From NCBI GenBank assembly GCA_965202665.1, contig OZ241841.1, positions 123,646-187,645 of the forward strand: DNA of 64,000 nt, read 5' to 3'. The stretch is from Candidatus Spongiisociaceae bacterium (GTDB taxonomy: Bacteria > Actinomycetota > Acidimicrobiia > Spongiisociales > Spongiisociaceae). How positions within the stretch are numbered: the first letter of the stretch is position 1; each line of letters starts with the position of its first letter. Of the stretch, positions 3,260 through 39,069 are shown piece after piece. A model generated the notes under the pieces. It was given only the letters and a program-made list of their open reading frames with translations, did no database searches and was not told the DNA's origin. Made by a program: the position numbers and the translations under genes.

Positions 3260-4666
3260 TCAGACGGGAATCCCCATCAGGTAATGCCGGGCGGCCCCCA
3301 CGATGTCCACTTCCAGCAACGTGCCGGGAGGGTACCGGCCCGGCACATGGGTGACCGTGTTGCCCCGGGTGCGGGTGGCGGCCGTGTCCGGGTCTTTGCG
3401 GGAGGGGCCTTCCGCCATCACCTCCAAGCGGCTTCCCACCCGGCGGCGGTTGTTCTCCTCCCCGATGGCGGCCTGCATTTCGGTGAGGCGGGCGAACCGC
3501 TCTTTGGCCGCGGCGGACGGGACGAACCGGTCGCCCATCTGCGCCGCCCGGGTGCCGGGGCGGGCCGAAAACAGGAACATGTAGGCGTGGTCGAAGCGGG
3601 CGGTTTCCACTACGCGCAGGGTGCGTTGAAAGTCCTCCTCCGTTTCGCCCGGGAAGCCGACGATGATGTCGGTGGAAACCGTCAGGCCGTCCACCGCCTC
3701 CCGGGCCATCTCCAGCCGTTTCAGGAACTTGTCGGCCGTGTATCCGCGGTGCATGGCGGCCAGGATGCGGTCCGAACCGGACTGGAGCGGGAAATGGAGC
3801 TGCTCGCACACCGCCGGGGTTTCGGCCATCGCCTCCGCCACCTCCGGGCGGAAGTCGTTGGGGTGGGGGCTGGTGAAGCGGATGCGTTTGATGCCCTCCA
3901 CTTCCCCCACCCGGCGCAACAGGTCGGCGAAGATGGGGCGGCGGCGCCCGTCGATGGCCAGGTCCCGCCCGTAAGTGTTGACGTTTTGGCCGAGCAACGT
4001 CACCTCCGCCGTCCCGTCCGCGGCCAGTTGTTCCACCTCCCGGATTACGTCCCCCGGACGGCGGCTGATTTCCGGCCCCCGCACCGCGGGCACGATGCAG
4101 AAGGTGCATGTGTTGTTGCATCCGACCTGGATGGTCACCCAGGCGGAATGGGCGGATTCCCGGCGGACGGGCAGGTCGGAGGGCATGGCGGCCAGCTGGT
4201 CGGCGATTTCGGTTACCGGCCCCCATTCTTCGGCCTGGTCCAGCAGGTGCAGCACCCGGTCCAGGTTGTGGGTGCCCAGCACCACGTCCACCCACGGGGC
4301 CCGCTCCCGCACCAGCTCCCGGTCTTTTTGGGCGGCGCACCCGCCCACGATCAGCATCCGGCCCGGGTCGGCCTCTTTCAAAGGCTTCAGTTGGCCCAGG
4401 TTGCCGTACAGCCGGTTGTCGGCGTTTTCCCGGATGGTGCAGGTGTTGATGAAAATCACATCCGCCGTTTCCATCCGGTCGGCGGGGGTCATGCCGTCCG
4501 ATTCGAACAGGCCCGCCACCCGTTCGCTGTCATGCTCGTTCATCTGGCAGCCGAAGGTGCGCAGGAAGTAGCGGCGCCCGGTGCGGGTGGGCGGGCGGGA
4601 TTCGGCCCGTTCCGCGGCGGCGGGGGCCGGTCGGCGGCGGGGTTCGTCTAGAAAAACGGTGGTCAT
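3260..4666 (-). CDS. miaB: tRNA-2-methylthio-N6-dimethylallyladenosine synthase (radical SAM methylthiotransferase)
   Basis: FLRTFGCQMNEHDSE, INTCTIRE and the radical-SAM CNNTCTFCIVP motif are present, with a TRAM-like C-terminus. The ATG at 4666 is preceded by GAGGAAA. Confidence 0.9.
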   Translation of the reverse strand: MTTVFLDEPRRRPAPAAAERAESRPPTRTGRRYFLRTFGCQMNEHDSERVAGLFESDGMTPADRMETADVIFINTCTIRENADNRLYGNLGQLKPLKEADPGRMLIVGGCAAQKDRELVRERAPWVDVVLGTHNLDRVLHLLDQAEEWGPVTEIADQLAAMPSDLPVRRESAHSAWVTIQVGCNNTCTFCIVPAVRGPEISRRPGDVIREVEQLAADGTAEVTLLGQNVNTYGRDLAIDGRRRPIFADLLRRVGEVEGIKRIRFTSPHPNDFRPEVAEAMAETPAVCEQLHFPLQSGSDRILAAMHRGYTADKFLKRLEMAREAVDGLTVSTDIIVGFPGETEEDFQRTLRVVETARFDHAYMFLFSARPGTRAAQMGDRFVPSAAAKERFARLTEMQAAIGEENNRRRVGSRLEVMAEGPSRKDPDTAATRTRGNTVTHVPGRYPPGTLLEVDIVGAARHYLMGIPV

Positions 4667-4682
4667 CGGCGGCGTTTCCTCG

Positions 4683-6212
4683 CTAACGGGCGTAGTCGGT
4701 GACACGCACTTCCCGAATCACCGTCACCTGAATGTGATTGGAGTAGCGCAGGTCGTTTTCCATGCGGCGGGCCACCGAATGGGCCAGGTGGGCGGCGGCC
4801 AAGTCGTCCACCTCCCCCGGGTCCACCACTATCCTAACCTCCCGGCCGGCCTGCATGGCGTACACTTGCTCCACCCCGCTGAACTCCCGCACCAGCGACT
4901 CTATTCTTTCCAGGCGGCGCATATAGGATTGCGCGGTGTTGTTGCGGGCCCCCGGACGGGATGCGGACACGGTGTCGGCCGTCTGTACGATGATGGACAG
5001 CAAAGTTCGGGGCTCCACTTCGTTGTGGTGGGCTTCTATCCCGTGCACCACCGCCGGGTCCTCCCCGAAGCGGCGGGCTATCTCGGCTCCGATCAGCGCG
5101 TGGGAACCCTGCACTTCGTGGGTGACCGCCTTGCCGATGTCGTGCAAGAAGGCGGACCTTTTCACATCGGCCGGGTCGATGCCCAGTTCGGCGGCCAGCA
5201 TTCCGGCCAGGTGGGCGGATTCGATCAGATGGTTGAGCACGTTCTGCCCGTACGAGGTGCGGTATTTGAGGCGGCCCAGCAGGGTGATCAGTTCGGGGTG
5301 TATTTGGGAGGCCCCCGCTTCCAGCACCGCCCACTCCCCGGCGTCCCGCACCGACTGCTCCACTTCCGTCTGGGCTTTCTCGTAGGACTCTTCGATGGAG
5401 GCGGGGTGGATTCGCCCGTCGGCCACCAGGTTCTCCAAAGCGAGGCGGGCGATTTCCCGGCGGACGGGATCGAAGGAGCTGACCATCACCATTTCCGGCG
5501 TGTCGTCCACCACCAAGTTGACCCCGGTTACCGACTCGAACGCCCGGATGTTGCGGCCTTCCCGGCCAATGATGCGGCCTTTCAGTTCATCGTTGGGCAA
5601 GGACACGGCGGAAACGGTGGTTTCGGCGGTGACCGGGGCGGCCAAGCGTTCGATGGCGGTGGTGAGTATGCGACGGGCCCGGCGGTCGGCTTCCTCCCGC
5701 ACCCGCAGTTCGGTTTCCCGGACCATCAACATCCCCTCCCGGCGGGTTTCTTCCTTGATTTGCTTGAGCAGTTCCTCTTTGGCGGCGGCGGCGTCCATGA
5801 GGGAAATCCGCTCCAGGCGGGCCCGGGCGTCGTGGCCTATCCGTTCCGCTTCCGAACGCAGGTCGTTCGCTTCGGCTTCCCGGCGGGCCGCCATCTGCTC
5901 CCGCAAAGCCAGGTTGGAGGCCCGTTGCTCCAGGGTCTGCTCCCGTTGCGCCAACCGGTCCTCGGAGGACGCCAACTCCATCCGCCGCTGATCCATCTCC
6001 GTCTGTCCCCGCTCCAGGTACTCGTCCACCCGGGCCCGCCCCTCGTCCTCGGCGCGGTCCATCAAACGTTGCGCCCGCCGCCGGGCCGCCGCCCCCGGAT
6101 CCTCCAGCACGTTCCTCCGCACGCGCCGCGCCGCCGCCAGCGCCCAAAGCGACAACCCCAGTATCGCCCCGCACGCCCCGACCGCAATCACCGACGTAAG
6201 ACTGACTTCCAT
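4683..6212 (-). CDS. rny: ribonuclease Y
   Basis: The protein has an N-terminal TM helix, a long charged coiled-coil and a KH region (GRIIGREGRNIRAFE). Its HD domain reads LHDIGKA...HH. The ATG at 6212 is preceded by GGGAAGG. Confidence 0.9.
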   Translation of the reverse strand: MEVSLTSVIAVGACGAILGLSLWALAAARRVRRNVLEDPGAAARRRAQRLMDRAEDEGRARVDEYLERGQTEMDQRRMELASSEDRLAQREQTLEQRASNLALREQMAARREAEANDLRSEAERIGHDARARLERISLMDAAAAKEELLKQIKEETRREGMLMVRETELRVREEADRRARRILTTAIERLAAPVTAETTVSAVSLPNDELKGRIIGREGRNIRAFESVTGVNLVVDDTPEMVMVSSFDPVRREIARLALENLVADGRIHPASIEESYEKAQTEVEQSVRDAGEWAVLEAGASQIHPELITLLGRLKYRTSYGQNVLNHLIESAHLAGMLAAELGIDPADVKRSAFLHDIGKAVTHEVQGSHALIGAEIARRFGEDPAVVHGIEAHHNEVEPRTLLSIIVQTADTVSASRPGARNNTAQSYMRRLERIESLVREFSGVEQVYAMQAGREVRIVVDPGEVDDLAAAHLAHSVARRMENDLRYSNHIQVTVIREVRVTDYAR

Positions 6213-6319
6213 TACCTTCCCAAGTTTGGTCACCGCCCCGGCCCTCCGACCAAAGCACCCCCATCCTAACAAAACCCATTACCAAATTGAAACCGCCTTA
6301 GGATAAGGAAAGGAACCAG

Positions 6320-7348
6320 CTAATCCTCCGACCAGGAGAAAGGCAAAGAAGGAGACATTTCCGTTACGTTACCAAAACATAGTCCACTCTCAATCTGCGG
6401 AGGTGGACTTCTATCAAAAAGTTCGTATCTTACGGTAGGGTGGGGAGGTTTTATGTCAGGGATGCCTATACCTTCCAAAGTATCCTGGCCTTTATTTGCC
6501 TGACGTATTATGTTAGCTTTAGCCTGCATCATAGGAATAATATTCCTAGAATAAGATTCATATATGTATTCCATAATAAGATCACCGACGGGGTGGTCTG
6601 TTGCAAAAATTAATGTATAAATTGGTATATTGTTATCTCTTATCCCTAGCGCATGTGTTTTCTTATATTGCAATATTGTCTCTAGCCTTTTTCGATATAA
6701 TTTGATCAATTCTTTTCTCATATTACTTGCATCCAAAAGGCCACTACGACGACGCTGATATATTGAAACCCAGTCCTCTGTCCCGTATACGCTATTTACT
6801 AAATCAATACTACTCTTTCCTTTCGCAACTTCAGCACCTATAACACGAAGCAGTGCTGGTTCAGGAAATAGTATGAATAACTCAATTTTAGGCTTACCTC
6901 TATCTTTCCATTTAGCTAATTTCTCCAAAGTTGCCCATTTAACTTGAAGTCCACAAGGATCAAGAAAAGCAATTGTAGGTGCTGATCTGTTCTTTATATA
7001 CTCTAAACCCATATCAATTGTATTATTACAGTCTCCAGGCAACACCTTCCAATCGCGAACATTGTGAGATACGCTCGTCTGAATTGATGATCTCAGGACT
7101 TCCGCTTTATCTCGCTTTTCGAATAATGCTACACGCGTGAAAGTCGGCTCGACATTAAAAGCGATCTGCGGCGAGCCGGGGAAGTATCCTTCCTCGTCAC
7201 GCCTTTTATTACGATATGACCCAGCAAACAGATCAAGATATATCCTATCGCGGGCACTTTTGCTAGCAATTGCAAATGGCCTTAGGTAATCCCATAGAAT
7301 ATCTATCTTGGTCTCTGACCACCAAGACCAATCTCTTTGCTCTGGCAT
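6320..7348 (-). CDS. three-Cys-motif partner protein TcmP-like
   Basis: The 342-aa protein begins ...WSWWSETKIDILWDYLRPF....RIYLDLFAGSY. This is the pattern I associate with the TcmP family, which pairs with DUF5131 proteins. It starts 6 nt downstream of the DUF5131 gene. The gene is very AT-rich (35-37% G+C on sampled lines). Confidence 0.6.
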   Translation of the reverse strand: MPEQRDWSWWSETKIDILWDYLRPFAIASKSARDRIYLDLFAGSYRNKRRDEEGYFPGSPQIAFNVEPTFTRVALFEKRDKAEVLRSSIQTSVSHNVRDWKVLPGDCNNTIDMGLEYIKNRSAPTIAFLDPCGLQVKWATLEKLAKWKDRGKPKIELFILFPEPALLRVIGAEVAKGKSSIDLVNSVYGTEDWVSIYQRRRSGLLDASNMRKELIKLYRKRLETILQYKKTHALGIRDNNIPIYTLIFATDHPVGDLIMEYIYESYSRNIIPMMQAKANIIRQANKGQDTLEGIGIPDIKPPHPTVRYELFDRSPPPQIESGLCFGNVTEMSPSLPFSWSED

Positions 7349-7354
7349 ATATCG

Positions 7355-8101
7355 TCACAACTTCCTTGCCGGTGGCATTTCGTTGTGGGTTTGGCCTTGG
7401 AGGGTGCGGCCGCCGGATTTGGGGGTGCGGCCGCCCCATTGTTTAAAGAAAAAGGGGACTTGGGCGGTATCGCACTGGTCGCGTAGGTCAGTAGCCCACT
7501 CTCCTTGCATGGGGCGGGCGCCGGGGCCGCTCTCCCCGCCTACGATCATCCAGTGGATGCCGTCTAGGTCAAGATTGGGTAGCGGTCCCAGCAACGGTTC
7601 GGCGCTTATGAACCTTACGGCCGCGTCCACTGTCCGCAGGTGGTCGATTCTGAATTTGTAGCGGGCGGTTTCCACGCTCACGCCCATCCACAGGTTGGGC
7701 GGCCACGCCAGTTTCTGACCGAACCGGGCCAGGCGTTGGGAACGTTTGGTTAGCAACTGGTACTGATGTTGCGGCGTGTCGGCTATCACCTCGAACACCC
7801 GGCGTATGTAATCGTCGGGCACGTCCTTGTGGAACAGATCGCTCATGGAGTCCACGAAGATGGTGCGGGGCTTGCGCCAGGAACGGGGAATATCCAATGC
7901 GTCGGGATGCAATGTCATTCCAAAACCGGGTCCGCTGGTGCGGGGGTCGCCGTCGTTACGATACTTTGCCACCCCCATCGCTTGCAATCGCTTGGCCAAT
8001 GTGAGGGCGTAGCAGTTGTCGCATCCCGGCGAGGTGCGGTCGCAACCGGTGGTCGGATTCCACGTTGCTTCCGTCCATTCTATGGCGCTCCTGTCAGACA
8101 T
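7355..8101 (-). CDS. DUF5131 (phage Gp37/Gp68) family three-Cys protein
   Basis: The N-terminus reads IEWTEATWNPTTGCDRTSPGCDNCYA, a three-Cys motif. Further motifs are FVDSMSDLFH and ISAEPLLGP...IHWMIVGGESG. I chose the ATG at 8101, which overlaps the upstream stop as ATGTCTGA. Confidence 0.7.
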   Translation of the reverse strand: MSDRSAIEWTEATWNPTTGCDRTSPGCDNCYALTLAKRLQAMGVAKYRNDGDPRTSGPGFGMTLHPDALDIPRSWRKPRTIFVDSMSDLFHKDVPDDYIRRVFEVIADTPQHQYQLLTKRSQRLARFGQKLAWPPNLWMGVSVETARYKFRIDHLRTVDAAVRFISAEPLLGPLPNLDLDGIHWMIVGGESGPGARPMQGEWATDLRDQCDTAQVPFFFKQWGGRTPKSGGRTLQGQTHNEMPPARKL

Positions 8102-8768
8102 TTTTCCCACTCCGCGCCCGCCCGCCATTAACTTCCAGGCCCCAGGCGCGCCAGCCTTCGACCTGTTGCCGGGCGAACAGCTCGATCTTCTTCTGTGCGG
8201 GAAACATTTGTTCGATGCGTTTGCGCACCTCGGCGGGTTTCTCCGAATGGGCGCCCCGTTTGTATCTCAAAAACTGGCGCACGTTGCGCGCCCCGCGCGG
8301 ACTGGGAATTTTGCCGCGTTTGAAAACCAGGCACATCTCGCACTGGCTCATCGTGTAGAAGCCGGGGTTCACCCGTATCTTGTCCCACACGAATGCCACC
8401 GTCGCCCACGCAAAGCCCCATGTTTTGCCCAGGTCTATAGCCTGATCCAGGTGCGGGTTGGTGGCCCACATGAACAGCAGGCAGTCGTCCGCCGCGATGT
8501 CGGGCACGGCTAGGCCCTTCAAGTGGTCCAGCGTAACGGTCGGGTAGTGCCGCATCGCTCCGCCCGTGTCCCGGTTGCCCGCTCCGGCATGTTGCAGTTG
8601 CCCTTTGTAATCCCAAGGCGGGTCGGCGTAGATGATGTCAAACTGGTCTTGCGGGAGAGCGGGGAAGCCGCCGGTGTCTCCGTTCCATATCTGGTCGAAC
8701 TCGGCGCGGGTCAGTTGCCCGGGCTCCGCCTCCGTCGGCTGCAACGCCCCTTTACCCGTGATGGTCAT
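8094..8768 (-). CDS. MT-A70 family N6-adenine methyltransferase
   Basis: The catalytic motif is IIYADPPWDY. The fold order follows the MT-A70 pattern (...LLFMWATN...WGF...). The ATG at 8768 is preceded by GGAGGG. Confidence 0.75.
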   Translation of the reverse strand: MTITGKGALQPTEAEPGQLTRAEFDQIWNGDTGGFPALPQDQFDIIYADPPWDYKGQLQHAGAGNRDTGGAMRHYPTVTLDHLKGLAVPDIAADDCLLFMWATNPHLDQAIDLGKTWGFAWATVAFVWDKIRVNPGFYTMSQCEMCLVFKRGKIPSPRGARNVRQFLRYKRGAHSEKPAEVRKRIEQMFPAQKKIELFARQQVEGWRAWGLEVNGGRARSGKNV

Positions 8769-8780
8769 TTTGTCCCTCCG

Positions 8781-8820
8781 CTTTCGTCCGGGGCGCATCC
8801 GGCGTCGCCCCGGACGAAAG
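8781..8820 (-). terminator. perfect 15-bp-stem hairpin downstream of recA (I-shaped terminator or processing site)
   Basis: CTTTCGTCCGGGGCG (8781-8795) and CGCCCCGGACGAAAG (8806-8820) are exact reverse complements around a 10-nt loop. No U-tract follows on the minus strand. The stem ends 1 nt before the Shine-Dalgarno of the MT-A70 gene. Confidence 0.4.
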
Positions 8821-8855
8821 TCAGCATATATCCTCGGCTTGCCGCCAACCGGGGG

Positions 8856-9902
8856 TCAGGCGGGGGTTGGGGCGGGAGCTTCGGTTTGGGTTTGGTCTGT
8901 TTCGGGGGCGGGTTCGGGCGGGGGGTTGACCGAAGCCAGGACTTGGGCTTGGAGTTGCATGGCCACCTCCGGGTTCTCCCGCAGGAAAGCCTTGGCCTTC
9001 TCCCGGCCCTGACCCAACTGGTCGCCGTCGAAGGTGTACCAGGCGCCGCTTTTCTTCACGATGCCCTCCGCCACCGCCACATCCAGCAGGCTCCCCTCCC
9101 AGGAAATGCCTTTCCCGAACATGATGTCGAACTCAGCCACCCGAAACGGAGGGGCCACCTTGTTTTTCACCACCCGCGCCCGCACCCGGTTGCCGATCTG
9201 AACGCCCCCGTCCTTGATCGCCTCAATCCGCCGCACGTCGATCCGCACGCTGGAATAAAACTTCAACGCCCGCCCACCCGGCGTCACCTCCGGCGATCCG
9301 TACACCACCCCAATCTTCTCCCTAAGCTGATTGATAAACACCGCCGTGGTGGACGACCGGTTTATTCCCGCCGTCAACTTCCGCAACGCCTGCGACATCA
9401 ACCGAGCCTGCAAACCCACATGGGTGTCGCCCATCTCCCCCTCAATCTCCGCCCGCGGCACCAACGCCGCCACCGAATCCACCACCACCACATCCAAGGC
9501 GTTGGAGCGCACCAGAATATCGGCTATCTCCAAAGCCTGCTCCCCGGTGTCCGGTTGCGACAGCAGCAGCTCGTCGGTGTCCACCCCCAATGCCTGCGCG
9601 TACACCGGATCCAACGCGTGTTCGGCGTCCACGAAAGCCGCCAACCCCCCGTTGCGTTGCGCCTCCGCCACCACATGCAAAGCCAACGTGGTCTTCCCGC
9701 TCGACTCAGGGCCGTACACCTCCACCACCCGCCCCCGGGGCACCCCCCCGATGCCCAAGGCGATATCCAAGGCCAAAGCCCCGGTGGAGATGTGCTCCAC
9801 CCTCAAGTGGGTCCCCTCGCCCAACTTCATGATCGCCCCCTTGCCGAACTGCCGCTCAATCTGCGACATCGCCCCATCCAAAGCCTGACTCTTTTCCTTC
9901 AT
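8856..9902 (-). CDS. recA: recombinase RecA
   Basis: [28 protein letters not shown], the Walker [10 protein letters not shown] and the L2 region [11 protein letters not shown] are present. ATG is at 9902. Confidence 0.95.
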
Positions 9903-10192
9903 CGTACCATCTCCTTCAGTCTCCACGACGCAACCTGCGCCCACTCCGCCCGGAACCAAACCCCGGCCCCGGTCGGCGTTTTCTCGCCTGTGGAGCACAA
10001 GGTACGGACTGCCTGTGACAAAAACGGGGGAGGGCCGTTTCCCGACCCGTGCCCGCTTTGCTTACTCTCCTTCCTTCCGCCCGTCGGCAGGCCGCACCCG
10101 CCTTAAATTACACGGATGTTTTCAACATCCCCGGCAATTCGTCCTCGCGCCCTTCGGCGACGTGAAACCAATATGCCAAATTTCCGCGGCGA

Positions 10193-10221
10193 ATACTACC
10201 CGAACGTATGTTCGGTTACAA
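10193..10221 (-). promoter_or_regulatory. putative recA promoter with embedded LexA (Cheo-type) box
   Basis: The minus strand reads TTGTAA-CCGAACATACGTTCGGG-TAGTAT. This gives a -35 (10216-10221) and a -10 (10193-10198) with a 17-nt spacer. The spacer contains the perfect palindrome CGAAC-N4-GTTCG (10201-10214). Confidence 0.6.
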
Positions 10222-10335
10222 GGATTTCGGTTCAGATGATGGCCTGGAAGGAGGCAAGGCCTTTGCCCGTATCCCGGAAACCTTTGTGGGGCAAGGGAAT
10301 TCGTCGAGGAGGGGCGGTGCGGAACCCAGCGCGGA

Positions 10336-10935
10336 TTAGAGGGGGAAAGTTTCCAAAATTTCGTATCGGGCCGGTTTTCCGCCCAGGAAACTGCGGTACA
10401 GCGCCATCTCCCTCACCGTCATTTTGACGCCCAACCGGGCCTTGGCCGAGCCGGCTGGTTCGTCCCGGCCGACTGCGCCGGCCGCTCGCAGATCGGCGGG
10501 GGGGCGAATGCGGGCCAAAGTTACGTGCGGATGGAAGGGGCGTTCCTCCGGCGGGAGCCCGGCCGCCCGCGCCGCCTCCTCCGCTATCGCCGCCAACCGC
10601 TCCAAACCTTCCCGCCCTTCCTCCGCTCCCAGCCAGGCGACGGTCGCCCGGGACGGTTTCGGAAACGCCCCCAGCCCGCCCAACCTCGCGCTGAAAGGCG
10701 CGGGCTTTCCCGCCCGGTCCAAGGCGGCCAGCAGCCGCTCCGCAACCGGCCGCTCCACCTCCCCCGCGAAGCGCAGGGTGATATGGAAGTTTCCGACCGG
10801 AACCGGGCGGGCCGGGCCCGGCGAGGAGGAGGCGCCCGTCGGCAAACCCAGGCCGGAGCGCCATCGGTCGACGGCCATCTGAATCTCGTCGGGGACGGGG
10901 ACGGCTGCGAACACCCGCAACCGGCCCTCACTCAT
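10336..10935 (-). CDS. thpR: RNA 2',3'-cyclic phosphodiesterase (2H family, LigT/ThpR)
   Basis: Two HxT motifs are present (FHITLRF and HPHVTLAR). The size is typical (199 aa). The start overlaps the cinA stop as ATGAGTGA. Confidence 0.8.
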   Translation of the reverse strand: MSEGRLRVFAAVPVPDEIQMAVDRWRSGLGLPTGASSSPGPARPVPVGNFHITLRFAGEVERPVAERLLAALDRAGKPAPFSARLGGLGAFPKPSRATVAWLGAEEGREGLERLAAIAEEAARAAGLPPEERPFHPHVTLARIRPPADLRAAGAVGRDEPAGSAKARLGVKMTVREMALYRSFLGGKPARYEILETFPL

Positions 10936-12181
10936 CGGGCTTCCACCATTCCCCGATCAGGGCCAGCCGCATCAACTGCAGGACGGCGGTGGCGGCGTAG
11001 GCCCGCACCCGTTCCCGGTCGCCGGGCAGTCGCAAAACCTTGGCGCGGACGTCCTGGGGGGTGCGCACCGCGACCACCACCGTCCCCGGCGGATGCTGCA
11101 GCGGCTCCGGGCCGGCCGAACCGGTCACCGCCGCCGCCGCGTCCGCCCCCAGCGCGCGGGCGGCCCCCTCCGCCATGGCCCGGGCGGTTTCCGGACTGAC
11201 CGCCCCGTGCTCTTCCAGAACGGCGGGCGGTACACCCAACATCCCGATTTTCACCTGCGGGTGATAGGCGGCCACCCCGCCTCGGAACACCGCCGACGAA
11301 CCGGGCGGTGCGCTCAACCGGGCGGCCACCATCCCCGAAGTCACCGACTCCGCCACCCCGATCGTCCATCCCCGGCGGGCCGCCTCCTCCAAGATGATCC
11401 CTTCGATGGTCTGCTCGTCGGCGGCGAACACGGAGTTTCCCAGCCGGCGCCGCACTTCGGCCTCCACCGGGGCGATCATCGCCCGGGCCCGCTCCTCGTC
11501 GGGGGCTTTGGCGGAAATGCGCACTTTCACCTCCCCGGCGGAGGCCAGATAGGCCAGGGACGGGTTGGCCCCCTCGTGGTAGATGTCGTCCAGGATTTCC
11601 GCCACCGCCGACTCGCCCCTCCCCCAGGTGCGCAACATGCGGCTCACCAGCGCCCCGCTCTCCCCCGACTCCGCGGCCAGGACGCCGACCGCGCCGTCCT
11701 CGAACATGCGGCGCATTTCGGCGGGCACTCCGGGCAGGGCGATGATCAGGATCCCCTCATGGCGGACCACCAAACCGGGGGCGGTGCCCCGGGAGTTGGG
11801 CAGCAGTTGCGCCCCCGCGGGATGTTCCGCCTGGCGGAGATTGTTGTCCGGGAAGGGACGCCCCAGTTTCCGCCAGCGGGCCGCCATTTCATCGGCGTAT
11901 TCCCGGTTGTAAACCATTTCCAGTCCGGCGGCGGCGCAGATGGCCTCCCTGGTGGCGTCGTCGGGGGTGGGGCCCAGGCCGCCGGTGATCAGCACCGCGT
12001 CCGCCCGGGCGGCGGCGGCGCGGATGGCGTCCGTCATCCGTTGGTGGTTGTCGCCCACCGCCGTCTGATAGTGGGCGTCGTAGCCCAGCTCGGCCAGCCG
12101 GTCCCCCAGGTAGGCGCAGTTGGTGTTGACGGTCTGGCCCAGTAGCAGTTCGGTTCCCACCGCCACGATTTCCACGATCAT
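10928..12181 (-). CDS. cinA: CinA family competence/damage-inducible protein (NMN amidohydrolase domain at the C-terminus)
   Basis: The MoCF-type N-terminus reads MIVEIVAVGTELLLGQTVNTN...ITGGLGPTPDD. The C-terminal PncC-like domain reads VAESVTSGMV. The gene occupies the last 417 aa of a chimeric 865-aa ORF. Its ATG shares one base with the rimO stop. Confidence 0.9.
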   Translation of the reverse strand: MIVEIVAVGTELLLGQTVNTNCAYLGDRLAELGYDAHYQTAVGDNHQRMTDAIRAAAARADAVLITGGLGPTPDDATREAICAAAGLEMVYNREYADEMAARWRKLGRPFPDNNLRQAEHPAGAQLLPNSRGTAPGLVVRHEGILIIALPGVPAEMRRMFEDGAVGVLAAESGESGALVSRMLRTWGRGESAVAEILDDIYHEGANPSLAYLASAGEVKVRISAKAPDEERARAMIAPVEAEVRRRLGNSVFAADEQTIEGIILEEAARRGWTIGVAESVTSGMVAARLSAPPGSSAVFRGGVAAYHPQVKIGMLGVPPAVLEEHGAVSPETARAMAEGAARALGADAAAAVTGSAGPEPLQHPPGTVVVAVRTPQDVRAKVLRLPGDRERVRAYAATAVLQLMRLALIGEWWKPDE

Positions 12182-13593
12182 CAGGATCCTCCGCTCGCTT
12201 GGAAGGCGGGGGGCGGGGCGGCGGCTTGGATGACCGACAGCGTCCGGGCCGCCTGGTCGGTTTCGTAGGAGCCGGTGATTTCCGCCCGCACCCACTCCCC
12301 CGGCCGCCCCTCGTCCAGGCAAATCAGGCCGTCTATGTCGGGGGCCTGCCGGTGCGAGCGCCCCACCGGAACGCCGTCTTCCACCTGATCCACCAGCACC
12401 TCGTGTATTTCCCCCACCGCGGCCGCGTTGCGGTCGGCGGTGATGCGGTCTTGGACGGCGGACAGTTCCCGGATGCGGGCCGCCGTCTCCTCCGGCTCCG
12501 CCCGGCCTTCCATTTCCACGGCGTCGGTGCCCGGTTCGGGGGAATAAGGGAAAAACCCGGCCCAGTCCAACCGGGCTTCGGCCAGGAACCCGGCCAACTC
12601 GTCCACTTCGGCGGCGGTTTCCCCCGGATAGCCGACGATGAAGGAGGAACGCAGGGCGGCGGCGGGGGCGGCTTCCCGGATGCGCCCGATCAGTTTGAGG
12701 TGGCTGTAGGGGCTCCCCGGCCGGCGCATGGTCCGCAACAGGCGGCGGGAGGCGTGCTGCAGACTCAAATCGAAGTAGGGGGCGATGACCGGGTTGGCGG
12801 CCATCTCTTCGATGAGGGCGGGGCGGATTTCGGTCGGATACAGGTAGAGGAGGCGCAGGCGGCGCAGGCCGTCGACGTCGCTTATGAAACGGAGCAGGTC
12901 GACGATGGTATGGCCGGGCCGGGAGGCGGCGGTCAGATCCCGCCCGTAGGCGGCCAAATCTTGGGCGACCAGCACGATCTCCGACGCTCCCCCCTCCCCC
13001 AGGGAGGCGATTTCCCGGCGGATGTCGATGGGGCGGCGGGAACGTTGCGGGCCGCGGATGAGGGGGATGGCGCAGAAGGCGCAGGTTTTGTCGCACCCTT
13101 CGGCTATTTTCACGTAGGCGTAGGGCAAGGAGGGGGCGGGGCGGTTGGTCATTTCCAAAATGTCCATTTGCGGGCGGCGGGGGCCGAGGCGCACCGGCTC
13201 CCAGCCGGTCAGGCCGTCCAGCAGGCCGACCAGTTCCCCGTAGCGGTCCAGGCCGACCACCGCGTCCGCCTCTTCGCGCAGGGCCTCCGTCAGTTCGGCC
13301 CCGAACCGCTGCGCCATGCATCCCATGACCACCAGGCGGGCCGAGTCGGTTTTGGCGGCGTGGGCGTCCAGAATGGTTTCCACCGATTCCCGCCGGGCGT
13401 CTTCTATGAAGGCGCAGGTGTTGATCATCACCACATCGGCGGTTTCCAGGTCGGCCCCGGCCCGGTAGCCGGCTTGGGCGAGCGCGGCGGCCACCTTGTC
13501 GGAGTCCACCTGGTTTTTGGGGCATCCCAGGGTGGTGATGTGCACGCGGGGGGCGAGGTCGGATTCGGCGGCGGCCGGGACGGGGAAGGGCAT
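12181..13593 (-). CDS. rimO: ribosomal protein S12 methylthiotransferase
   Basis: ITTLGCPKNQVDSD, INTCAFIEDA and the radical-SAM CDKTCAFCAIP motif are present, with a TRAM-like end. Confidence 0.85.
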   Translation of the reverse strand: MPFPVPAAAESDLAPRVHITTLGCPKNQVDSDKVAAALAQAGYRAGADLETADVVMINTCAFIEDARRESVETILDAHAAKTDSARLVVMGCMAQRFGAELTEALREEADAVVGLDRYGELVGLLDGLTGWEPVRLGPRRPQMDILEMTNRPAPSLPYAYVKIAEGCDKTCAFCAIPLIRGPQRSRRPIDIRREIASLGEGGASEIVLVAQDLAAYGRDLTAASRPGHTIVDLLRFISDVDGLRRLRLLYLYPTEIRPALIEEMAANPVIAPYFDLSLQHASRRLLRTMRRPGSPYSHLKLIGRIREAAPAAALRSSFIVGYPGETAAEVDELAGFLAEARLDWAGFFPYSPEPGTDAVEMEGRAEPEETAARIRELSAVQDRITADRNAAAVGEIHEVLVDQVEDGVPVGRSHRQAPDIDGLICLDEGRPGEWVRAEITGSYETDQAARTLSVIQAAAPPPAFQASGGS

Positions 13594-14717: not shown

Positions 14718-14856
14718 AGCCCTCCTCCGCCCCCATCCTACCCTCCCCCGCCCGACTCGCGCGGCACCGTCCGATTAGCGTTACCCCGCTGGGCTTGGTA
14801 ACCTGTAGCTTGGAGGGCTCACGACGGGCACCGGGAGGCAGAAAGGGAGGCACGCG

Positions 14857-16074
14857 ATGGATGGCAAAAGGTTCATCCGAACCATCCGCTTGGAGAACAT
14901 CCTTTCCTACGGTCCGGACAGGACCGAGTTAGAACTGCAACCGTTGAATGTACTGATTGGCCCCAACGCCTCCGGCAAATCCAATCTGATCGAGGCTCTG
15001 TCGCTACTTGAATCCGCTCCTGGCAATCTGCAAAGGCCCATAGAAATGGGAGGTGGTATTAGAGAATGGTTATGGAAAGGACAGGACGATTTACCTATTG
15101 CTACGATAGAAGTTACCGTAGAACATCCCAACCAACTTTCGGATATTCGATATAAACTATCATTTTCAGAGACAAATCTGGGAGGTTTTAAATTGCAAGA
15201 CGAAACAATAGAAGGAACAAAAAACAAAAATAAAAACGGAGAACCACCCTTTTATTATCAATACAATGAAGGCAAATCAGTGCTTTATTCTAAAGATATT
15301 TCAAAAAAATCAAAATGGAAGCAAAGGAGTTTGGAAATAGATTTAAGTTTCGAACAATCCATTCTATCTCAGTTTCGTGACCCGGTGGTGTTTCCAGAGC
15401 TTGATTACTTGAGTGATCAATTTAAAAGTATATGGTTTTACCGTGAATGGGACCTTGGACACTATAAACCACCCCGTATCCCTCTACCAATTGATTTTCC
15501 CGTATCCTATCTATTCGAAGATGCTTCTAATCTTAGTTTAGTTTTAAGTACTCTATTAAAAAACCCTGAACTAAAAGAAAAAATTATTAATTATATGAAG
15601 ATTTTTTATCCAAATAGCACCGATATCGGTTTTGAAGTAAAAAGTGGAGGTGTTCTCATGCACTTACATGAACGAGGTCTGAGACATCGAGTTCCGGCGA
15701 CTAGATTATCAGATGGAACTCTACGCTTTCTCTGCTTACTAACTATCTTATTGCATCCTGATCCACCATCCATAATCTGTATAGAAGAACCAGAAGGCGG
15801 CTTACATCCGGATATTATTCCGGAAGTAGGAAAACTGCTAGTTGATGCATCATCTCGTAGTCAGATTATTGTTACCACTCATTCCGATATTCTAGTTGAT
15901 GCCTTATCCGATTTTCCAGAATCGATTATCGTCTGCGAAAAACCCGAAATATCTACTCAATTGCAACGATTAGATCGAGAAGAAATCGAAAAGTGGCTCA
16001 GCGCATACCGTGGAAAAGAAAACCAACTTGGAACAATGTGGACAAATGGAGAAATAGGGGGAAACCGATGGTAA
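14857..16074 (+). CDS. ABC/SMC-like AAA ATPase (AAA_21-type)
   Basis: Walker A is LIGPNASGKSNLIEAL, the signature-like motif is LSDGTLRF, Walker B is IICIEEPEGGLHP and the H-loop is VTTHS. AAGGGAGG lies 7 nt before the ATG. Confidence 0.8.
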   Translation: MDGKRFIRTIRLENILSYGPDRTELELQPLNVLIGPNASGKSNLIEALSLLESAPGNLQRPIEMGGGIREWLWKGQDDLPIATIEVTVEHPNQLSDIRYKLSFSETNLGGFKLQDETIEGTKNKNKNGEPPFYYQYNEGKSVLYSKDISKKSKWKQRSLEIDLSFEQSILSQFRDPVVFPELDYLSDQFKSIWFYREWDLGHYKPPRIPLPIDFPVSYLFEDASNLSLVLSTLLKNPELKEKIINYMKIFYPNSTDIGFEVKSGGVLMHLHERGLRHRVPATRLSDGTLRFLCLLTILLHPDPPSIICIEEPEGGLHPDIIPEVGKLLVDASSRSQIIVTTHSDILVDALSDFPESIIVCEKPEISTQLQRLDREEIEKWLSAYRGKENQLGTMWTNGEIGGNRW

Positions 16075-16667
16075 ATCGAATTATATGTATCGAGGGTGGA
16101 GGCCAGGGTAAGGGAGCGAGCATCGCTCACCGTAAAGGCTTTGTATCTTTTGTAAAGAGGGCTGGTTTGCAAGGAAAAATGCCCAAAATTGTACTCTGTG
16201 GTAGTCGCTACAAAGCGTACAGTAAGTTCAAAAAGGAGAGTGAGTATAGTCAAGATGTTATACTCCTCGTTGATGCTGAGGCAACAGTTGCTACTAACCA
16301 ACCGTGGGAACACCTTAAGAAAGAAGATGGGTGGGAACGCCCTGATGGTACTACCGACGAGCAATGTCATCTTATGGTTCAAATTATGGAATCCTGGTTT
16401 CTGGCGGACAAGCAAGCACTAGCAAAATATTACGGACGCCAGTTTAATAGGAGTGCACTTCCAAAAAATCAAAATATTGAAGAAATTTCTAAAGTAGATG
16501 TAGAAGAAGGATTAAAGCAAGCAACTAAAAAAACTCAAAAAGGTGAATACAGTAAGGGATCACACAGTTTTAAGATTTTAGCACTATTAGATCCTGAAAA
16601 AGTACGAAAGGCCTCCCCATATGCAGACCGCTTTATCAAAACATTGTTAGGGCAAAGCAATGCCTGA
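16068..16667 (+). CDS. DUF4276-like (TOPRIM-like) partner of the AAA ATPase
   Basis: The start overlaps the ATPase stop (ATGGTAA). The pattern IICIEGGG...ILLVDAE...[11 protein letters not shown] matches what I recall for DUF4276/RloB-like proteins that pair with AAA_21 ATPases. The family assignment needs an HMM check. Confidence 0.5.
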
Positions 16668-18239
16668 TAGCGGAGCTACTATCGGGTATGAGGCTGAGCT
16701 TTGGGATATGGCGAACAGTCTGCGAGGGAGTATAGATGCCGCTGAGTATAAGCATGTGGTGCTGGGATTGATTTTTCTCAAGTATGTGTCGGACGCATTT
16801 GAGGAACTACGCAAACAGTTGCTAAAGGAGCCCGAGGCGGACCCAGAAGATCCGGAAGAATACATCGCTCAGCGGGTGTTCTGGGTGTCGCCTGCGGCAC
16901 GATGGGAACTTTTACAGGGCGAGGCCAAACAATCTGACATCGGCCAGCTGGTGGATAGAGCGATGGATGCCATCGAACGGTACAACCCCGCTCTCAAAGG
17001 CGTACTACCCAAGGAATATGCTCGGCAATCCCTAGAACCAAAAAGTCTTGGCCAGCTGATTGACATGATTAGCAACATCAAAGTGGGAGATAAAGAATCC
17101 CGTTCCAAAGACGTACTAGGCCGCATTTACGAGTACTTTCTGTCACAATTTGCCGGGGCTGAAGGCAAAAAAGGTGGCGAGTTCTACACCCCGCGTTGTG
17201 TGGTGAAACTGCTAGTGGAAATGATCGAACCCTACCAAGGCCAAGTGTATGATCCCTGTTGCGGCTCCTCAGGTATGTTCGTGCAATCAAAAGAATTTAT
17301 TGAAGCACATGCTACTGGCAACGGGAACGGTGGTTTCCAAACTCAGCACCTGACACTCCAATCTATGGGCAAGAATCCAACTATACCACCTGGAGAATGG
17401 CCAAAATGAATCTGGCGATTAGAGGCATCGACTCTTCTCAAATCTTTCATGGAAATACTTTTCACGACGATAAACACCCAGACCTAAAAGCCGATTATAT
17501 ACTTGCCAACCCTCCATTCAATATCTCTGAGTGGGGTGGTAAAAGTTTAAAGGATGATCCACGCTGGAAATTCGCCCCCCCCCCCCCTAAAAATGCGAAT
17601 TTTGCTTGGGTCCAACACATTATACACCATCTCAGCCCAAACGGCGTAGCCGGATTTGTTCTCGCTAATGGATCAATGACATCTCGACAAAATAACGAGG
17701 GGGAAATCCGAAAAAAGATAATAGAAGAAAGATTAGTTGATTGTATGGTTGCTCTCCCAGGGCAACTTTTTTATTCCACTCAAATTCCGGCTTGCCTTTG
17801 GTTTATTGCACGCAACAGGGCAAATGGAAAATTCAGAAATAGAATAAACGAGATATTATTTATCAGTGCTAGCAAAATGGGACAAATGGTTAGCCGAACT
17901 CATCGAGAACTAACAAACGAAGAAATAAAACAAATAGCAAAGACATATCATGCTTGGCGTGGAGAAAATTATATAGATGAATATAATGATATACCAGGAT
18001 TTTGCAAGAGTGCTACCATAGAAGAGGTACGTCAATACGATTATATGCTAACCCCTGGCAGGTATGTTGGAGTAGAGTTACAAAGAGAAGATGATGAAAT
18101 CTTTGAAGACAAAATGTCGCGATTATCAACACAGTGGTTTCAATCTAGTAGAGAGGCGAAGGAGATAGACCAACTTATATCATCCAATCTGGGAAAACTA
18201 GGTTTTACTTCTAGACAGGAAAATGAGGATCCGCTATGA
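16660..18239 (+). pseudogene. hsdM: type I restriction-modification methylase subunit HsdM, interrupted by a frameshift
   Basis: ORF 16660-17409 (frame 1) carries the HsdM_N region and motif I ([14 protein letters not shown]). Frame 3 is open from 17301 and encodes [31 protein letters not shown] and NANFAWVQH. Colinearity with HsdM requires a frame change at about 17355-17362. Confidence 0.8.
17575..17587 (+). repeat. C13 homopolymer inside hsdM (encodes PPPP)
   Basis: Counted directly: ttcg + 13 C + taaa. The reading frame is GCC CCC CCC CCC CCT, giving APPPP. Confidence 0.95.
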
Positions 18240-19561
18240 TAAACGAAAATTGGATAAAGACCACTTTAGGCGAATGCGCGATTATAAACGAACGCACATA
18301 TCGTCCAAGCGAGCAATGGCCGTTTGTCAACTACCTTGAGACTGGTCAAATAACCGATAATAGAATTTCTGGTATCCACCATTTTGATGCCAGCAAAGAC
18401 AAAATACCATCCCGTGCTCGCCGAAAAGTACGGCCGGGCGATATCGTTTATTCCACGGTCATAGCAAATAAAAATAATTTCGGCATCATCAAAAAGGTAT
18501 TTGACAACTTCTTAGTTTCCACTGCTTTTGCCGTAATACGCGGAAAGCCATACATAGCAGACACACCATATATTTACTATTATATTACTCAAAAAAATAT
18601 AAGAAATTACTTTCATACGTTAGCCCAGCAAAGCTCGTCAGTAATACCTGCATTACAAATTAGAGACCTTGAGGAACTGCAAATACCACTGCCCCCAATC
18701 GAACAACAACAATCTATCATTCATATTCTGGAAACTTTTGACAACAAAATACACTTGAATCAGCAAATGAACAGAACTTTGGAGGAGATATCTAGGGCAT
18801 TGTTTAAATCGTGGTTTGTTGATTTTGATCCAGTTCGGGCTAAAATGGACGGTAGCTGGCAACCCGACCAATCACTCCCCGGTTTACCCGCAGAACTCTA
18901 CGATCTCTTCCCCGATCGCCTTTTACCCTCTAAACTGGGTGAGCAACCAGAGGGATGGGATATAGTAACAATAGGAGATATATCAACCATTGTCGGCGGT
19001 GCTACACCCAGTACTAGCCAACACATTTTTTGGGAAGACGGCCACCATCCCTGGGTCACCCCCAAAGATGTCTCTGCGCTTTCTACTCCAGTTCTCCTGA
19101 CAACCTCTCGTAAAATAACTGATGCTGGATTAGAATGTATAAGTTCAGGACTTTTACCTCAAGGTACAGTACTAATGTCTTCGAGAGCTCCAATAGGATA
19201 TTTAGCTATAACTGAAATACCTTTAGCTATCAATCAAGGATTCATTGCCATATTACCTAACAAAAATATATCAAACTTATTTTTTCTTTACTGGTGTGAA
19301 TATAATATATCGCATATAATTAATTATGCCAACGGTTCTACGTTTCTTGAAATAAATAAGAGAAATTTTAGGAACATTAATCTATCATTACCTATACGAC
19401 CTATCTTAAAAATTTACGATGAAATAGTAAGAAATTTATATGAACAAATGAAGTCAAATGAAATAGAAAATATACTCCTCGTAAACATGCGCGATGCTCT
19501 TTTGCCGAAATTGTTGTCGGGGGAAATTCGGGTTGAGGATTTGGAAGGGGTTTTGGGATGA
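18236..19561 (+). CDS. hsdS: type I restriction-modification specificity subunit HsdS (two target-recognition domains)
   Basis: The 441-aa protein has two TRD-like halves separated by a conserved helical spacer ([48 protein letters not shown]). The C-terminal repeat reads ...[16 protein letters not shown] overlaps occur at both ends. Confidence 0.85.
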
Positions 19562-22500: not shown

Positions 22501-22689
22501 GAACTGGTGGAAACGGTGCGCGCCAACGCCAAAATCGACTGGACCCGCCGGGAGGATGTCCGCGCCCAACTGCGGGTGGCCGTCAAACGACTGCTCCGCA
22601 GACATGGCTACCCGCCTGACAAGCAGGAGAAGGCCACCAACACCGTAATCAAGCAAGCGGAAGCCCTAACCACCACCTGGCTCACCTAA
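19558..22689 (+). CDS. hsdR: type I restriction endonuclease subunit HsdR
   Basis: The 1043-aa protein has an N-terminal nuclease region ([18 protein letters not shown]). The SF2 helicase motifs are [26 protein letters not shown] and QAIARVNR. Confidence 0.9.
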
Positions 22690-22746
22690 CCCCGCCCGTA
22701 TGCTACACTATGCCTTCTAGGCTATACGCTTACCTAGAAAGGAAGA

Positions 22747-23367
22747 GTGCCAATGTTGCCTCCCAACCCGAATGAGATCTTTGGAACCAAAGATGTTATT
22801 CAGGAACTGAAAACGAAACTCATCAACGAGTTACGCAAGGTTCGCAATCCTGTCAGCTTCAACAGTGTTGATTCCTACGTAAAGGAGTTTTCAGTAGAGA
22901 TTCCCGTCTTAAGGAAACATCAAACAAAGATTGGGGTTGATAAAGCATTCCCTGCTGGGGCTGAATATTTTAGTAGAAATTGTAGTCCATATACTATGAT
23001 ACCCGGAAAAGAGTTCATTCTCGTTATACCTTTTATAGGAGATGCTAGAGTGTTTTATCATATGCCTTCCTCCTGGCTTGTCTCTGGTCGACAAGAAGGA
23101 GATATAGAAAATAATAGATTGGTTATAAAGTTCGGGGTATTGACTTATGGGCTGGCAAATCCTAAAAAAGATATTCCAAATAATGTCAATAAACGGAGGC
23201 AAGATATTATAGATCGTATTGAAAGGTGGTACGAGTTAGTTAAAAAAGATTTTATTAACTGGAACAACAACTTGAATAGTTTTGTTGAATCTCAGATTGT
23301 TGCGAGAAAGAAAGAAATTGAAATAGAGGCCGAAATAAATATAGCTATCAATAATAGTTTAGATTGA
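22747..23367 (+). CDS. hypothetical protein (AT-rich orphan downstream of hsdR)
   Basis: The ORF is 206 aa (more likely starting at ATG 22753, which lies behind AGGAAG). It has clean coding-like composition and a predicted coiled-coil tail. No motif was recognised. Confidence 0.5.
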   Translation: MPMLPPNPNEIFGTKDVIQELKTKLINELRKVRNPVSFNSVDSYVKEFSVEIPVLRKHQTKIGVDKAFPAGAEYFSRNCSPYTMIPGKEFILVIPFIGDARVFYHMPSSWLVSGRQEGDIENNRLVIKFGVLTYGLANPKKDIPNNVNKRRQDIIDRIERWYELVKKDFINWNNNLNSFVESQIVARKKEIEIEAEINIAINNSLD

Positions 23368-23487
23368 GCATTGCCCCTAAATTGTTTTGTCGAGGCTCTC
23401 CCTGTTCGGCCCGGGGATAGCGTCAAGGTGACGGCGGAGATGCCAGCCGGGTGCTACCGGGAAACTGATAGGCTGAAAAAAGGGAGG

Positions 23488-23709
23488 CTACCGAATAGCG
23501 GAGGTCAGGTTAATCTCCTCCTCGGTTACTTCGTGTAGAGAAACCGCGCTGGCGGGGTCCTCTATCCGAACTTCGAGCCTGTAACCCAGCGTCTGCGCCA
23601 ACAGGTCTATCTTCACATCCGTTACTGTTGAGACTTCGTGCCCCGGGTGGTCTATAAACCATTCCTTAGCAGCCCAGACGCGTTCGACCACCAATGTTTC
23701 TTCGGTCAT
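23488..23709 (-). CDS. hypothetical small acidic protein
   Basis: The ORF is 73 aa. Its start overlaps the stop of the upstream 192-aa ORF (ATGA). Confidence 0.4.
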   Translation of the reverse strand: MTEETLVVERVWAAKEWFIDHPGHEVSTVTDVKIDLLAQTLGYRLEVRIEDPASAVSLHEVTEEEINLTSAIR

Positions 23710-38876: not shown

Positions 38877-39069
38877 AAAATTCGGGTTCAGTCAAGTTAA
38901 ACCTTGAGGGGGTTCATCGGCTGAGGGCTTCTTCCGGGTTTCGGACAACGGAGACCGGGAGGCTGATCCAAAGAGGGCCTTCAATGAAATGGTAGCCTCT
39001 TCCGCAAAGCCTGCGTTGTTCCATCAGATGGATCTGGACTGAACATCACGTCATATAATCCGGGATGCG

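Follow-up and report, generated by a model that had tools for sequence, protein, structure and literature searches.

A DUF5131-TcmP gene pair and an MT-A70 gene between recA and rny in Candidatus Spongiisociaceae

The proteins of the DUF5131 family (phage Gp37/Gp68) and the three-Cys-motif partner proteins (TcmP) are listed together in PADLOC as the candidate defence systems PDC-M41 and PDC-M30. The PDC systems are 145 candidates obtained by 'guilt-by-embedding' in BREX, DISARM and type I restriction-modification (R-M) loci and, as they are candidates only, membership says nothing about mechanism. As for biochemistry, the literature yielded no functional study of either DUF5131 or TcmP, the two being mentioned in gene lists only, in agreement with the view that the pair has no assigned biochemical function. 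The closest described counterpart comes from Mycobacterium tuberculosis, in which Rv2735c is co-transcribed with recA and recX according to reverse-transcription PCR (PMC3062782), while Rv2734, Rv2735c, recX and recA form one cluster induced by mitomycin C (PMC5057432). Many isolates of M. tuberculosis lineage 4 have a frameshift in Rv2735c (PMC9846648), and the pair is absent at recA in M. smegmatis (PMC3062782). Here we describe such a pair in a 64,000-nucleotide (nt) stretch of a Candidatus Spongiisociaceae genome (contig OZ241841.1) from a sponge-associated lineage of Acidimicrobiia, the stretch being called hereafter the window, where DUF5131 and TcmP follow a gene of the MT-A70 methyltransferase family in the interval between recA and rny.

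With a probability of roughly 85%, this locus is a vertically inherited copy of a widespread mobile DUF5131-TcmP module that was captured in the recA transcription unit and lies there with an MT-A70 gene particular to the lineage. That the pair would work as a DNA-damage-coupled conflict module, in defence or exclusion, by acting on nucleic acid is a more tentative proposal, to which we give slightly less than even odds. The pair itself being already known, the features that are new with respect to the catalogued pair are its embedding behind recA, its coupling to MT-A70, and its hypervariable TcmP.

The recA-rny interval and its genes

A previous reading of this DNA, made from its letters alone and called here the sequence-only reading, had described three co-oriented minus-strand genes arranged as a tight operon between recA and rny, and the verification of the coordinates, of the 8-nt overlap and of the 6-nt gap bears out this description. 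The features are, in positions of the window:

8856-9902, minus strand: recA, with RecA_N and RecA_C domains, upstream gene of the probable transcription unit
8094-8768, minus strand: MT-A70, 224 amino acids (aa), PF05063 and DPPW motif, N6-adenine methyltransferase family
7355-8101, minus strand: DUF5131 (phage Gp37/Gp68) three-Cys protein, 248 aa, PF07505, putative non-canonical enzyme of the radical S-adenosylmethionine (SAM) superfamily
6320-7348, minus strand: TcmP (three-Cys-motif partner protein), 342 aa, TIGR04474, predicted class I SAM-methyltransferase fold of the RlmJ type
4683-6212, minus strand: rny
3260-4705, minus strand: miaB
8781-8820, minus strand: 15-bp hairpin at the 3' end of recA, directly before the ribosome-binding site of MT-A70
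10195-10214, minus strand: LexA (SOS) box CGAACATACGTTCG with a -10-like TAGTAT, about 300 nt upstream of the recA ATG

MT-A70 really starts with the ATG at 8768, which follows GGAGGG by 5 nt; the ATG at 8798 given in the list of open reading frames (ORFs) falls within the hairpin. The MT-A70 stop and the DUF5131 start share the 8-nt overlap ATGTCTGA (8101-8094), and a 6-nt spacer (cgatat) leads from the DUF5131 stop to the TcmP ATG. The motifs quoted for the three products, namely IIYADPPWDY in MT-A70, WNPTTGCDRTSPGCDNCY and DLFAGS, are all present. In the same line, the three family calls were upheld by profile hidden Markov models, each above its cut-off: PF05063 for MT-A70 (74.5 bits against 23.9, E 1.3e-20, over the full-length profile 1-172), PF07505 for DUF5131 (333 bits against 28.9, E 1.1e-99), and TIGR04474 for TcmP (158.7 bits against 53, E 2.6e-46), no Pfam family being matched by the latter. 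Regarding PADLOC, MT-A70 matches the MTase_II model PDLC03262 (E 9.7e-59), DUF5131 the model PDC-M41B (E 1.2e-109), and TcmP the model PDC-M41A (E 1.2e-28); with both component models matched by adjacent genes, the window pair is a PDC-M41/M30 candidate.

In terms of base composition, the low guanine-plus-cytosine (GC) content that had been claimed for the cassette stands for TcmP, at 40.4% with a minimum of 34% in a 300-nt window, but the figures need correction: MT-A70 and DUF5131 have 62.2% and 60.6% rather than 53-60%, and the flanking genes 64-69% rather than about 70%, the mean of the window being 63.6%. More precisely, the GC content at third codon positions is 0.34 in TcmP versus 0.83-0.87 in the neighbouring genes. 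The sole compositionally foreign gene of the trio is TcmP, MT-A70 and DUF5131 being near the backbone, which around recA includes rimO, rny, miaB and miaA.

Conservation and divergence in related genomes

Six further assemblies (L002, L003, L006, L007, L178 and L180) were recovered by exact-protein look-up, and all have the order recA, MT-A70, DUF5131, TcmP, rny, miaB, miaA in common. The trio occupies recA/rny in all seven related genomes recovered and is fixed there in the sampled lineage, and the idea of a cassette recently inserted at this place is not supported, both for this reason and for the near-backbone GC content of MT-A70 and DUF5131.

Within this fixed arrangement, the divergence of TcmP stands out. 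Among five genomes, amino-acid identity amounts to 92-100% for rimO, recA, rny and miaB, 92-98% for DUF5131, 80-96% for MT-A70, and 61-76% for TcmP. Between L002 and L003, identity rounds to 100% for the recA, rny and miaB proteins and is only 70% for TcmP; the window and L178 are 77% identical at the DNA level in the TcmP region and 99% in rny. Altogether, seven TcmP alleles at 73-85% DNA identity lie between flanks at 91-99%, and in the DNA alignment identity drops exactly at the TcmP start and returns about 50 nt past its stop. Besides, the first 120 nt or so of TcmP are identical in L002 and L003 and divergent afterwards, which is a mosaic pattern.

The synonymous divergence (dS) and the ratio of nonsynonymous to synonymous divergence (omega), both obtained by the Nei-Gojobori method, show the same. 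In TcmP, dS is 0.38-0.60 in every pair whatever the backbone distance, with omega at 0.32-0.46 and a peak of 0.6-0.8 at codons 166-210, in an inserted helical subdomain; rimO, rny and miaB have dS of 0.04-0.25 and omega not above 0.34. The corresponding values are 0.15-0.43 and 0.05-0.10 for DUF5131, and 0.09-0.41 and 0.15-0.37 for MT-A70. As a separate observation, the dS between the two backbone clades in recA, MT-A70 and DUF5131 (7355-9902; 0.3-0.56) is two- to three-fold above that in rimO, rny and miaB (12181-13593 and 3260-6212; 0.12-0.25), which suggests a separate recombination history of this block or a different codon constraint.

The TcmP alleles of the lineage make up one clade with two sub-clades that are incongruent with the backbone clades, a pattern that, on these trees, points to an old polymorphism reassorted by recombination. 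Repeated import of TcmP from a distant low-GC donor was considered and rejected since the lineage alleles are monophyletic, and no silent TcmP cassettes able to drive gene conversion were found within the 64-kb window. TcmP is AT-rich in all relatives (GC 0.38-0.42), whereas in most other taxa its GC content about equals that of the DUF5131 partner, and the L178 allele is frameshifted. The lineage thereby offers a natural experiment in which the enzyme is constant while the partner is swapped between near-identical strains, and which would pinpoint TcmP as the specificity or conflict interface.

As regards MT-A70, the solved structures closest to it are those of Tetrahymena MTA1-type proteins and METTL3, and its homologues in 468 phage records are annotated as DNA methylase or MunI-like. 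Judged by these relatives, the gene product is probably a small phage-type solitary DNA N6-methyladenine (m6A) methylase. The co-occurrence of the trio was surveyed from both sides: DUF5131, TcmP or recA was found near the MT-A70 relatives in 0 of 80 metagenome loci, and MT-A70 stands beside DUF5131 in 1 of 80 DUF5131 loci of the genome collection, the adjacency being confined to this lineage and to L009, a Candidatus Spongiisociaceae metagenome-assembled genome (MAG) that is the nearest genome in the species-representative set. In addition, MT-A70 tracks the backbone tree and does not co-vary with TcmP.

These data bear on the model derived from the sequence-only reading, a recently inserted R-M-like trio with a modification-plus-effector architecture, in which MT-A70 would protect self while DUF5131 and TcmP, of matching specificity, would restrict unmethylated DNA. 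Such a model draws on the tight operon coupling through the 8-nt overlap and the 6-nt gap, on the PADLOC assignment of MT-A70 to the REBASE-type type II methylases, and on the presence of a low-GC defence island 6 kb away. Nevertheless, the trio is fixed at its site in the relatives with two genes of backbone-like composition, MT-A70 and TcmP go separate ways (96% versus 63% identity between the window and L007), the association is nearly absent from both surveys, and the locus has no nuclease fold or nuclease-type effector. The missing nuclease, the lack of MT-A70/TcmP co-variation and the lineage-unique linkage thus weaken a classical R-M reading, which we regard as very improbable.

The pair elsewhere and its possible role

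The module was followed through the 80 DUF5131 loci of the genome collection, a TcmP within 300 nt being counted as adjacent. In 62 of them, spread over many phyla, the two genes are neighbours, as expected of a pair that had been described as a recurrent one, and they are arranged convergently (26 loci), with TcmP upstream on the same strand (25), or with TcmP downstream on the same strand (11). A Pfam census of 150 neighbouring ORFs gave no recurrent third partner, and the neighbours of DUF5131 are heterogeneous, with scattered R-M, TIR, HipA, integrase, insertion sequence and relaxase genes. In M. abscessus and M. shimoidei, the pair stands beside type III R-M, Mrr, AAA_15 ATPases, Abi_C and an integrase. 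The same four-gene block, made of an N6_N4_Mtase (696 aa), ResIII/YagJ (846 aa), TcmP and a convergent DUF5131, was observed in different defence islands of these two species (L173-L176). In phages, the Gordonia phage PantheRoc encodes a DUF5131 that is 69% identical to that of the window and convergent with TcmP, the latter following the immunity repressor directly and in the same orientation, with an integrase a few genes away; this is presumably the slot into which prophages commonly put lysogeny-expressed genes. The pair is very widespread: TcmP forms a large family of 6195 clusters at 50% identity, and DUF5131 occurs across many bacterial phyla, with an identity of 54-87%, as well as in 178 phage records. 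A variant with one TcmP between two DUF5131 genes was also seen in Candidatus Poriferisodalis (L010, 8001-10592).

A defence role of the pair is supported by its PADLOC candidacy, by its mobile and defence neighbours, by the lysogeny slot in PantheRoc, and by the constraint on DUF5131 together with the hypervariability of TcmP. It is also supported by the GC content of TcmP, which matches that of a low-GC island with HEC-01 and type I R-M genes in the window. Moreover, the frameshifts of TcmP in L178 and in lineage-4 M. tuberculosis are typical of accessory conflict genes. In the mechanism that we propose, DUF5131 would be the conserved catalytic subunit, an Fe-S radical-SAM-like enzyme acting on nucleic acid, and TcmP would be a SAM-binding subunit of methyltransferase fold that selects or senses the target under conflict-driven diversification, the two making up an anti-mobile-element (defence or exclusion) module. 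DNA damage would raise the expression of the pair by way of transcripts that run on from the LexA-controlled promoter of recA, and MT-A70 would methylate host DNA and may mark self, as an add-on of the lineage rather than a defining part. The most specific version, according to which the hypervariable methyltransferase-fold sensor directs a conserved non-canonical radical-SAM enzyme to alter or damage invader nucleic acid through radical chemistry, the system being wired into recA/SOS in at least two actinobacterial lineages including M. tuberculosis, is doubtful; if true, a radical-SAM effector acting on nucleic acid would represent new chemistry for bacterial immunity or for the DNA-damage response.

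The defence cluster of the window (14857-22689, plus strand) begins 6 kb beyond recA and comprises:

14857-16074, plus strand: HEC-01, AAA_21 ABC ATPase
15993-16667, plus strand: HEC-01, DUF4276 protein
16660-17409 and 17397-18239, plus strand: type I R-M hsdM in two ORFs, probable frameshift
18236-19561, plus strand: type I R-M hsdS
19558-22689, plus strand: type I R-M hsdR

The low-GC tract at 14801-19700 (minimum 0.30) covers HEC-01, hsdM and hsdS, most of hsdR lying outside, and further low-GC patches are found at 22601-24100 and 38801-39700. The content of the cluster varies among related strains, for instance through truncated ATPases or HsdM.

With respect to expression, the LexA box CGAACATACGTTCG proposed for the recA promoter is indeed found at 10201-10214, as the single match in 64 kb (0.12 expected), and is invariant in seven relatives. 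A promoter scan returned two sigma-70-like matches, both within DUF5131 and in a number equal to chance, which agrees with the claim that the trio has no promoter of its own in the 87-nt recA/MT-A70 spacer. The perfect 15-bp hairpin at 8781-8820 was likewise confirmed: the 101-nt intergenic RNA between recA and MT-A70 has a minimum free energy of -45.9 kcal/mol (z = -3.4, none of 200 shuffles folding as well), and seven relatives, L009 among them, preserve the hairpin with two compensatory changes of base pairs. It is devoid of a T-run or U-tract, and its role could be one of termination, attenuation or stabilisation. Transcription that starts at the LexA-controlled promoter of recA may continue into the trio, and such SOS coupling is supported by the conserved LexA box, by the hairpin without U-tract, and by the M. 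tuberculosis precedent. Upstream of recA, the leader of about 300 nt between the LexA box and the ATG (9903-10214, minus strand) was seen to be near-invariant in the seven relatives including L009, and may contain a second promoter or a regulatory RNA element that has escaped recognition; an Rfam scan of 6000-10400 returned nothing for the hairpin or for this leader.

The M. tuberculosis precedent rests on the following identification. The lead to Rv2734 was the phiE125 gp37 annotation, and a TcmP cluster (P0251, 330 aa, 681 members) contains NPLASE, FPGDGR and KGTNAE, the peptides of the published Rv2735c primers. The locus of this cluster consists of recA with an intein, recX, TcmP, a convergent DUF5131 on the opposite strand, miaB and, farther, miaA. 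Because both the primer peptides and the locus order match, Rv2735c is TcmP and Rv2734 is DUF5131, and the two are the same pair as in the window, likewise between recA and miaB. Rv2734 is 65% identical to the DUF5131 of the window, and Rv2735c is 35% identical to its TcmP (E 2e-48) and 60% identical to the TcmP of the Gordonia phage. A damage-induced pair in the recA operon of M. tuberculosis constitutes a genetically tractable and medically relevant system for testing function. The interest of the Spongiisociaceae locus lies in making the function of DUF5131-TcmP directly testable by way of this parallel, and not in an R-M-like trio.

The structural data on DUF5131 lead to another reading of the damage coupling. 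At RadicalSAM.org, DUF5131 is a radical-SAM subgroup placed in megacluster 5-2, beside spore photoproduct lyase, and the window protein gives a partial match to TIGR04471, the radical SAM mobile pair protein A (E 1.2e-21, 77 bits, below the cut-off of 355). In 85 DUF5131 sequences, phage copies included, the conservation of the elements C20-x6-C27-x2-C30, SMxDxFH, TKR, GGESG and FFxKQWG reaches 97% or more. An AlphaFold2 model with a predicted local distance difference test (pLDDT) score of 70 contains a partial TIM barrel with the three-Cys loop at the N-terminus, and spore photoproduct lyase is among its best Foldseek matches, without significance (query-normalised template modelling score, TMq, of 0.40-0.43, E 0.03-0.07). 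A sequence search of the PDB with DUF5131 gave no match. The radical-SAM defence system Ophion is unrelated.

On this basis, the pair could instead be a repair module, in which DUF5131 would be a lesion-reversing lyase similar to spore photoproduct lyase, TcmP would flip or recognise the damaged base, and both would be induced together with recA. The grouping and fold matches that include spore photoproduct lyase fit this reading, as do the position of the pair beside recA in two distant actinobacterial lineages, the induction by mitomycin C of Rv2734 although it lies on the opposite strand (PMC5057432), and the housekeeping-like evolution of DUF5131. In the same line, Candidatus Hopanoidivorans cymbastelae (L038, 3383-9601) carries a solitary DUF5131 4 kb from recA, at the opposite flank of this conserved block: rimO and cinA follow it immediately, and recA comes about 1 kb after cinA. 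However, a lesion-recognition subunit would be expected to be conserved, whereas TcmP is hypervariable, AT-rich, reassorted and sometimes frameshifted; most copies of the pair are found in defence islands, prophages and mobile contexts and not beside repair genes, and the distribution is patchy, as illustrated by its absence at recA in M. smegmatis. A repair role stays a serious rival in view of the link to recA, the response to damage and the kinship of DUF5131 with spore photoproduct lyase, but it falls short because the diversification of TcmP and the mobile and defence-island contexts are left unexplained, and we rate it as unlikely.

For TcmP, an AlphaFold2 model with a pLDDT of 81 adopts a class I methyltransferase fold whose top Foldseek match is RlmJ (E 1.7e-5, probability 1.0, 309-326 aligned columns). 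Against viral structures, Foldseek returned generic methyltransferase folds only, none at E of 1e-3 or below, and the sequence search of the PDB gave a chance match only, to an IclR regulator (E 0.54). The acidic and glycine residues D39, G43, E77, D106 and D130, which belong to motifs I-IV, do not vary in an alignment of 23 TcmP sequences. Motif IV reads D-P/Q-x-G (FLDP-C/x-G, or IDQQ in M. tuberculosis) and holds no aromatic residue, so that the catalytic (D/N)PP(Y/F/W) form is not present. At the other end, the last 15 residues or so (6320-6370; SPSLPFSWSED) were observed to be conserved in divergent alleles after a disordered and variable tail, distant homologues including Rv2735c also terminating in a Trp/acidic motif; this C-terminal motif could serve as a docking peptide.

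Two further explanations start from these folds. In the first, the trio would be a DNA modification or hypermodification pathway that builds or remodels a modified adenine, with TcmP alleles setting the specificity, and would have an epigenetic or anti-restriction role with no restriction arm. Two adenine-methyltransferase-type folds, MT-A70 and the RlmJ-like TcmP, flank the radical-SAM-like enzyme, and phages, which have DUF5131 in the 178 records, often hypermodify DNA. Moreover, DUF5131 is found without TcmP downstream of a bona fide DNA methylase in L009 and in the Acidimicrobiia MAG L013. In the latter (5633-8762), DUF5131 is preceded by an N6 DNA methylase similar to MAD2/HsdM, the roughly 870 nt between the two hold no further called gene, and no TcmP was detected within 8 kb; together, L009 and L013 hint that a true DNA methylase can replace TcmP beside DUF5131. 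Nevertheless, TcmP has D-P/Q-x-G in place of (D/N)PP(Y/F), and the link to MT-A70 is absent from the rest of the family, which makes a hypermodification pathway decidedly unlikely. In the second explanation, the pair would be directed at RNA and would modify or damage rRNA or tRNA. RlmJ, the top fold match, is an rRNA m6A methylase, one prophage homologue of DUF5131 is annotated as RNA methyltransferase, and rimO, rny, miaB and miaA, which act in RNA modification or processing, are neighbours; yet these neighbours simply reflect the backbone synteny that is conserved around recA, the pair is not beside RNA genes elsewhere, and the fold match is modest (TM 0.4-0.5). An RNA target is thus very unlikely.

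Coming back to the vertically inherited module and its proposed conflict role, several observations weigh against them. In L009 (7275-8741), recA, MT-A70 and DUF5131 are directly followed by an unrelated CO-dehydrogenase gene, TcmP and rny not being found within 8 kb, so that MT-A70-DUF5131 is kept without TcmP; this arrangement suggests that a rearrangement broke the locus precisely where the variable gene would lie. Most of the 178 DUF5131 phage records have no detectable TcmP either, and no published anti-phage activity of DUF5131-TcmP was found. Profile searches matched no nuclease family among the trio proteins, which include no recognisable toxic effector. Since the mean omega of TcmP is below 1, positive selection is not demonstrated. 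Concerning DUF5131, the protein lacks the canonical CX3CX2C and has CX6CX2C, PF04055 gives no match at E of 0.01 or below, and Foldseek against the PDB gives none at E of 1e-3 or below; the radical-SAM call consequently rests on classification and motifs and not on fold. Finally, the adjacency to recA and the damage induction would be compatible with a repair role too.

Comparison with described systems

Among described systems, type II R-M systems with MT-A70/MunI-like methylases share with this locus a REBASE-type small solitary m6A methylase, here translationally coupled to the downstream genes. They differ from it in that no endonuclease fold is present here, that methylase and variable partner do not change in step, and that only this lineage has the two linked.

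At the level of single proteins, DUF5131 resembles spore photoproduct lyase and other radical SAM enzymes through its place in the same megacluster, the partial TIM barrel with N-terminal three-Cys loop of its predicted model and its partial NCBIfam match, but departs from them through CX6CX2C instead of CX3CX2C, the lack of PF04055, and a fold match below significance (E 0.03-0.07). In a similar way, RlmJ, the 23S rRNA m6A2030 methyltransferase of DUF519 fold, is the top structural match to TcmP, in which the acidic residues of motifs I-IV are invariant. However, the TM score of 0.4-0.5 comes with 13-14% identity only, motif IV of TcmP is without aromatic residue, and TcmP, unlike RlmJ, always travels with DUF5131 and has a disordered tail ending in the conserved Trp/acidic motif.

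As regards whole modules, the window pair matches both models of PDC-M41/PDC-M30 and has the same two-gene logic. It differs by being fixed in the recA-rny interval and not in a mobile island, by being preceded by a translationally coupled MT-A70, and by a hypervariable TcmP that lies 20 GC points under its partner gene. The nearest parallel is Rv2735c/Rv2734, the same pair in the same recA-miaB chromosomal interval, although the M. tuberculosis genes are convergent, with recX intervening and with neither MT-A70 nor rny, and although Rv2735c, unlike the TcmP of the window, has a host-like composition.

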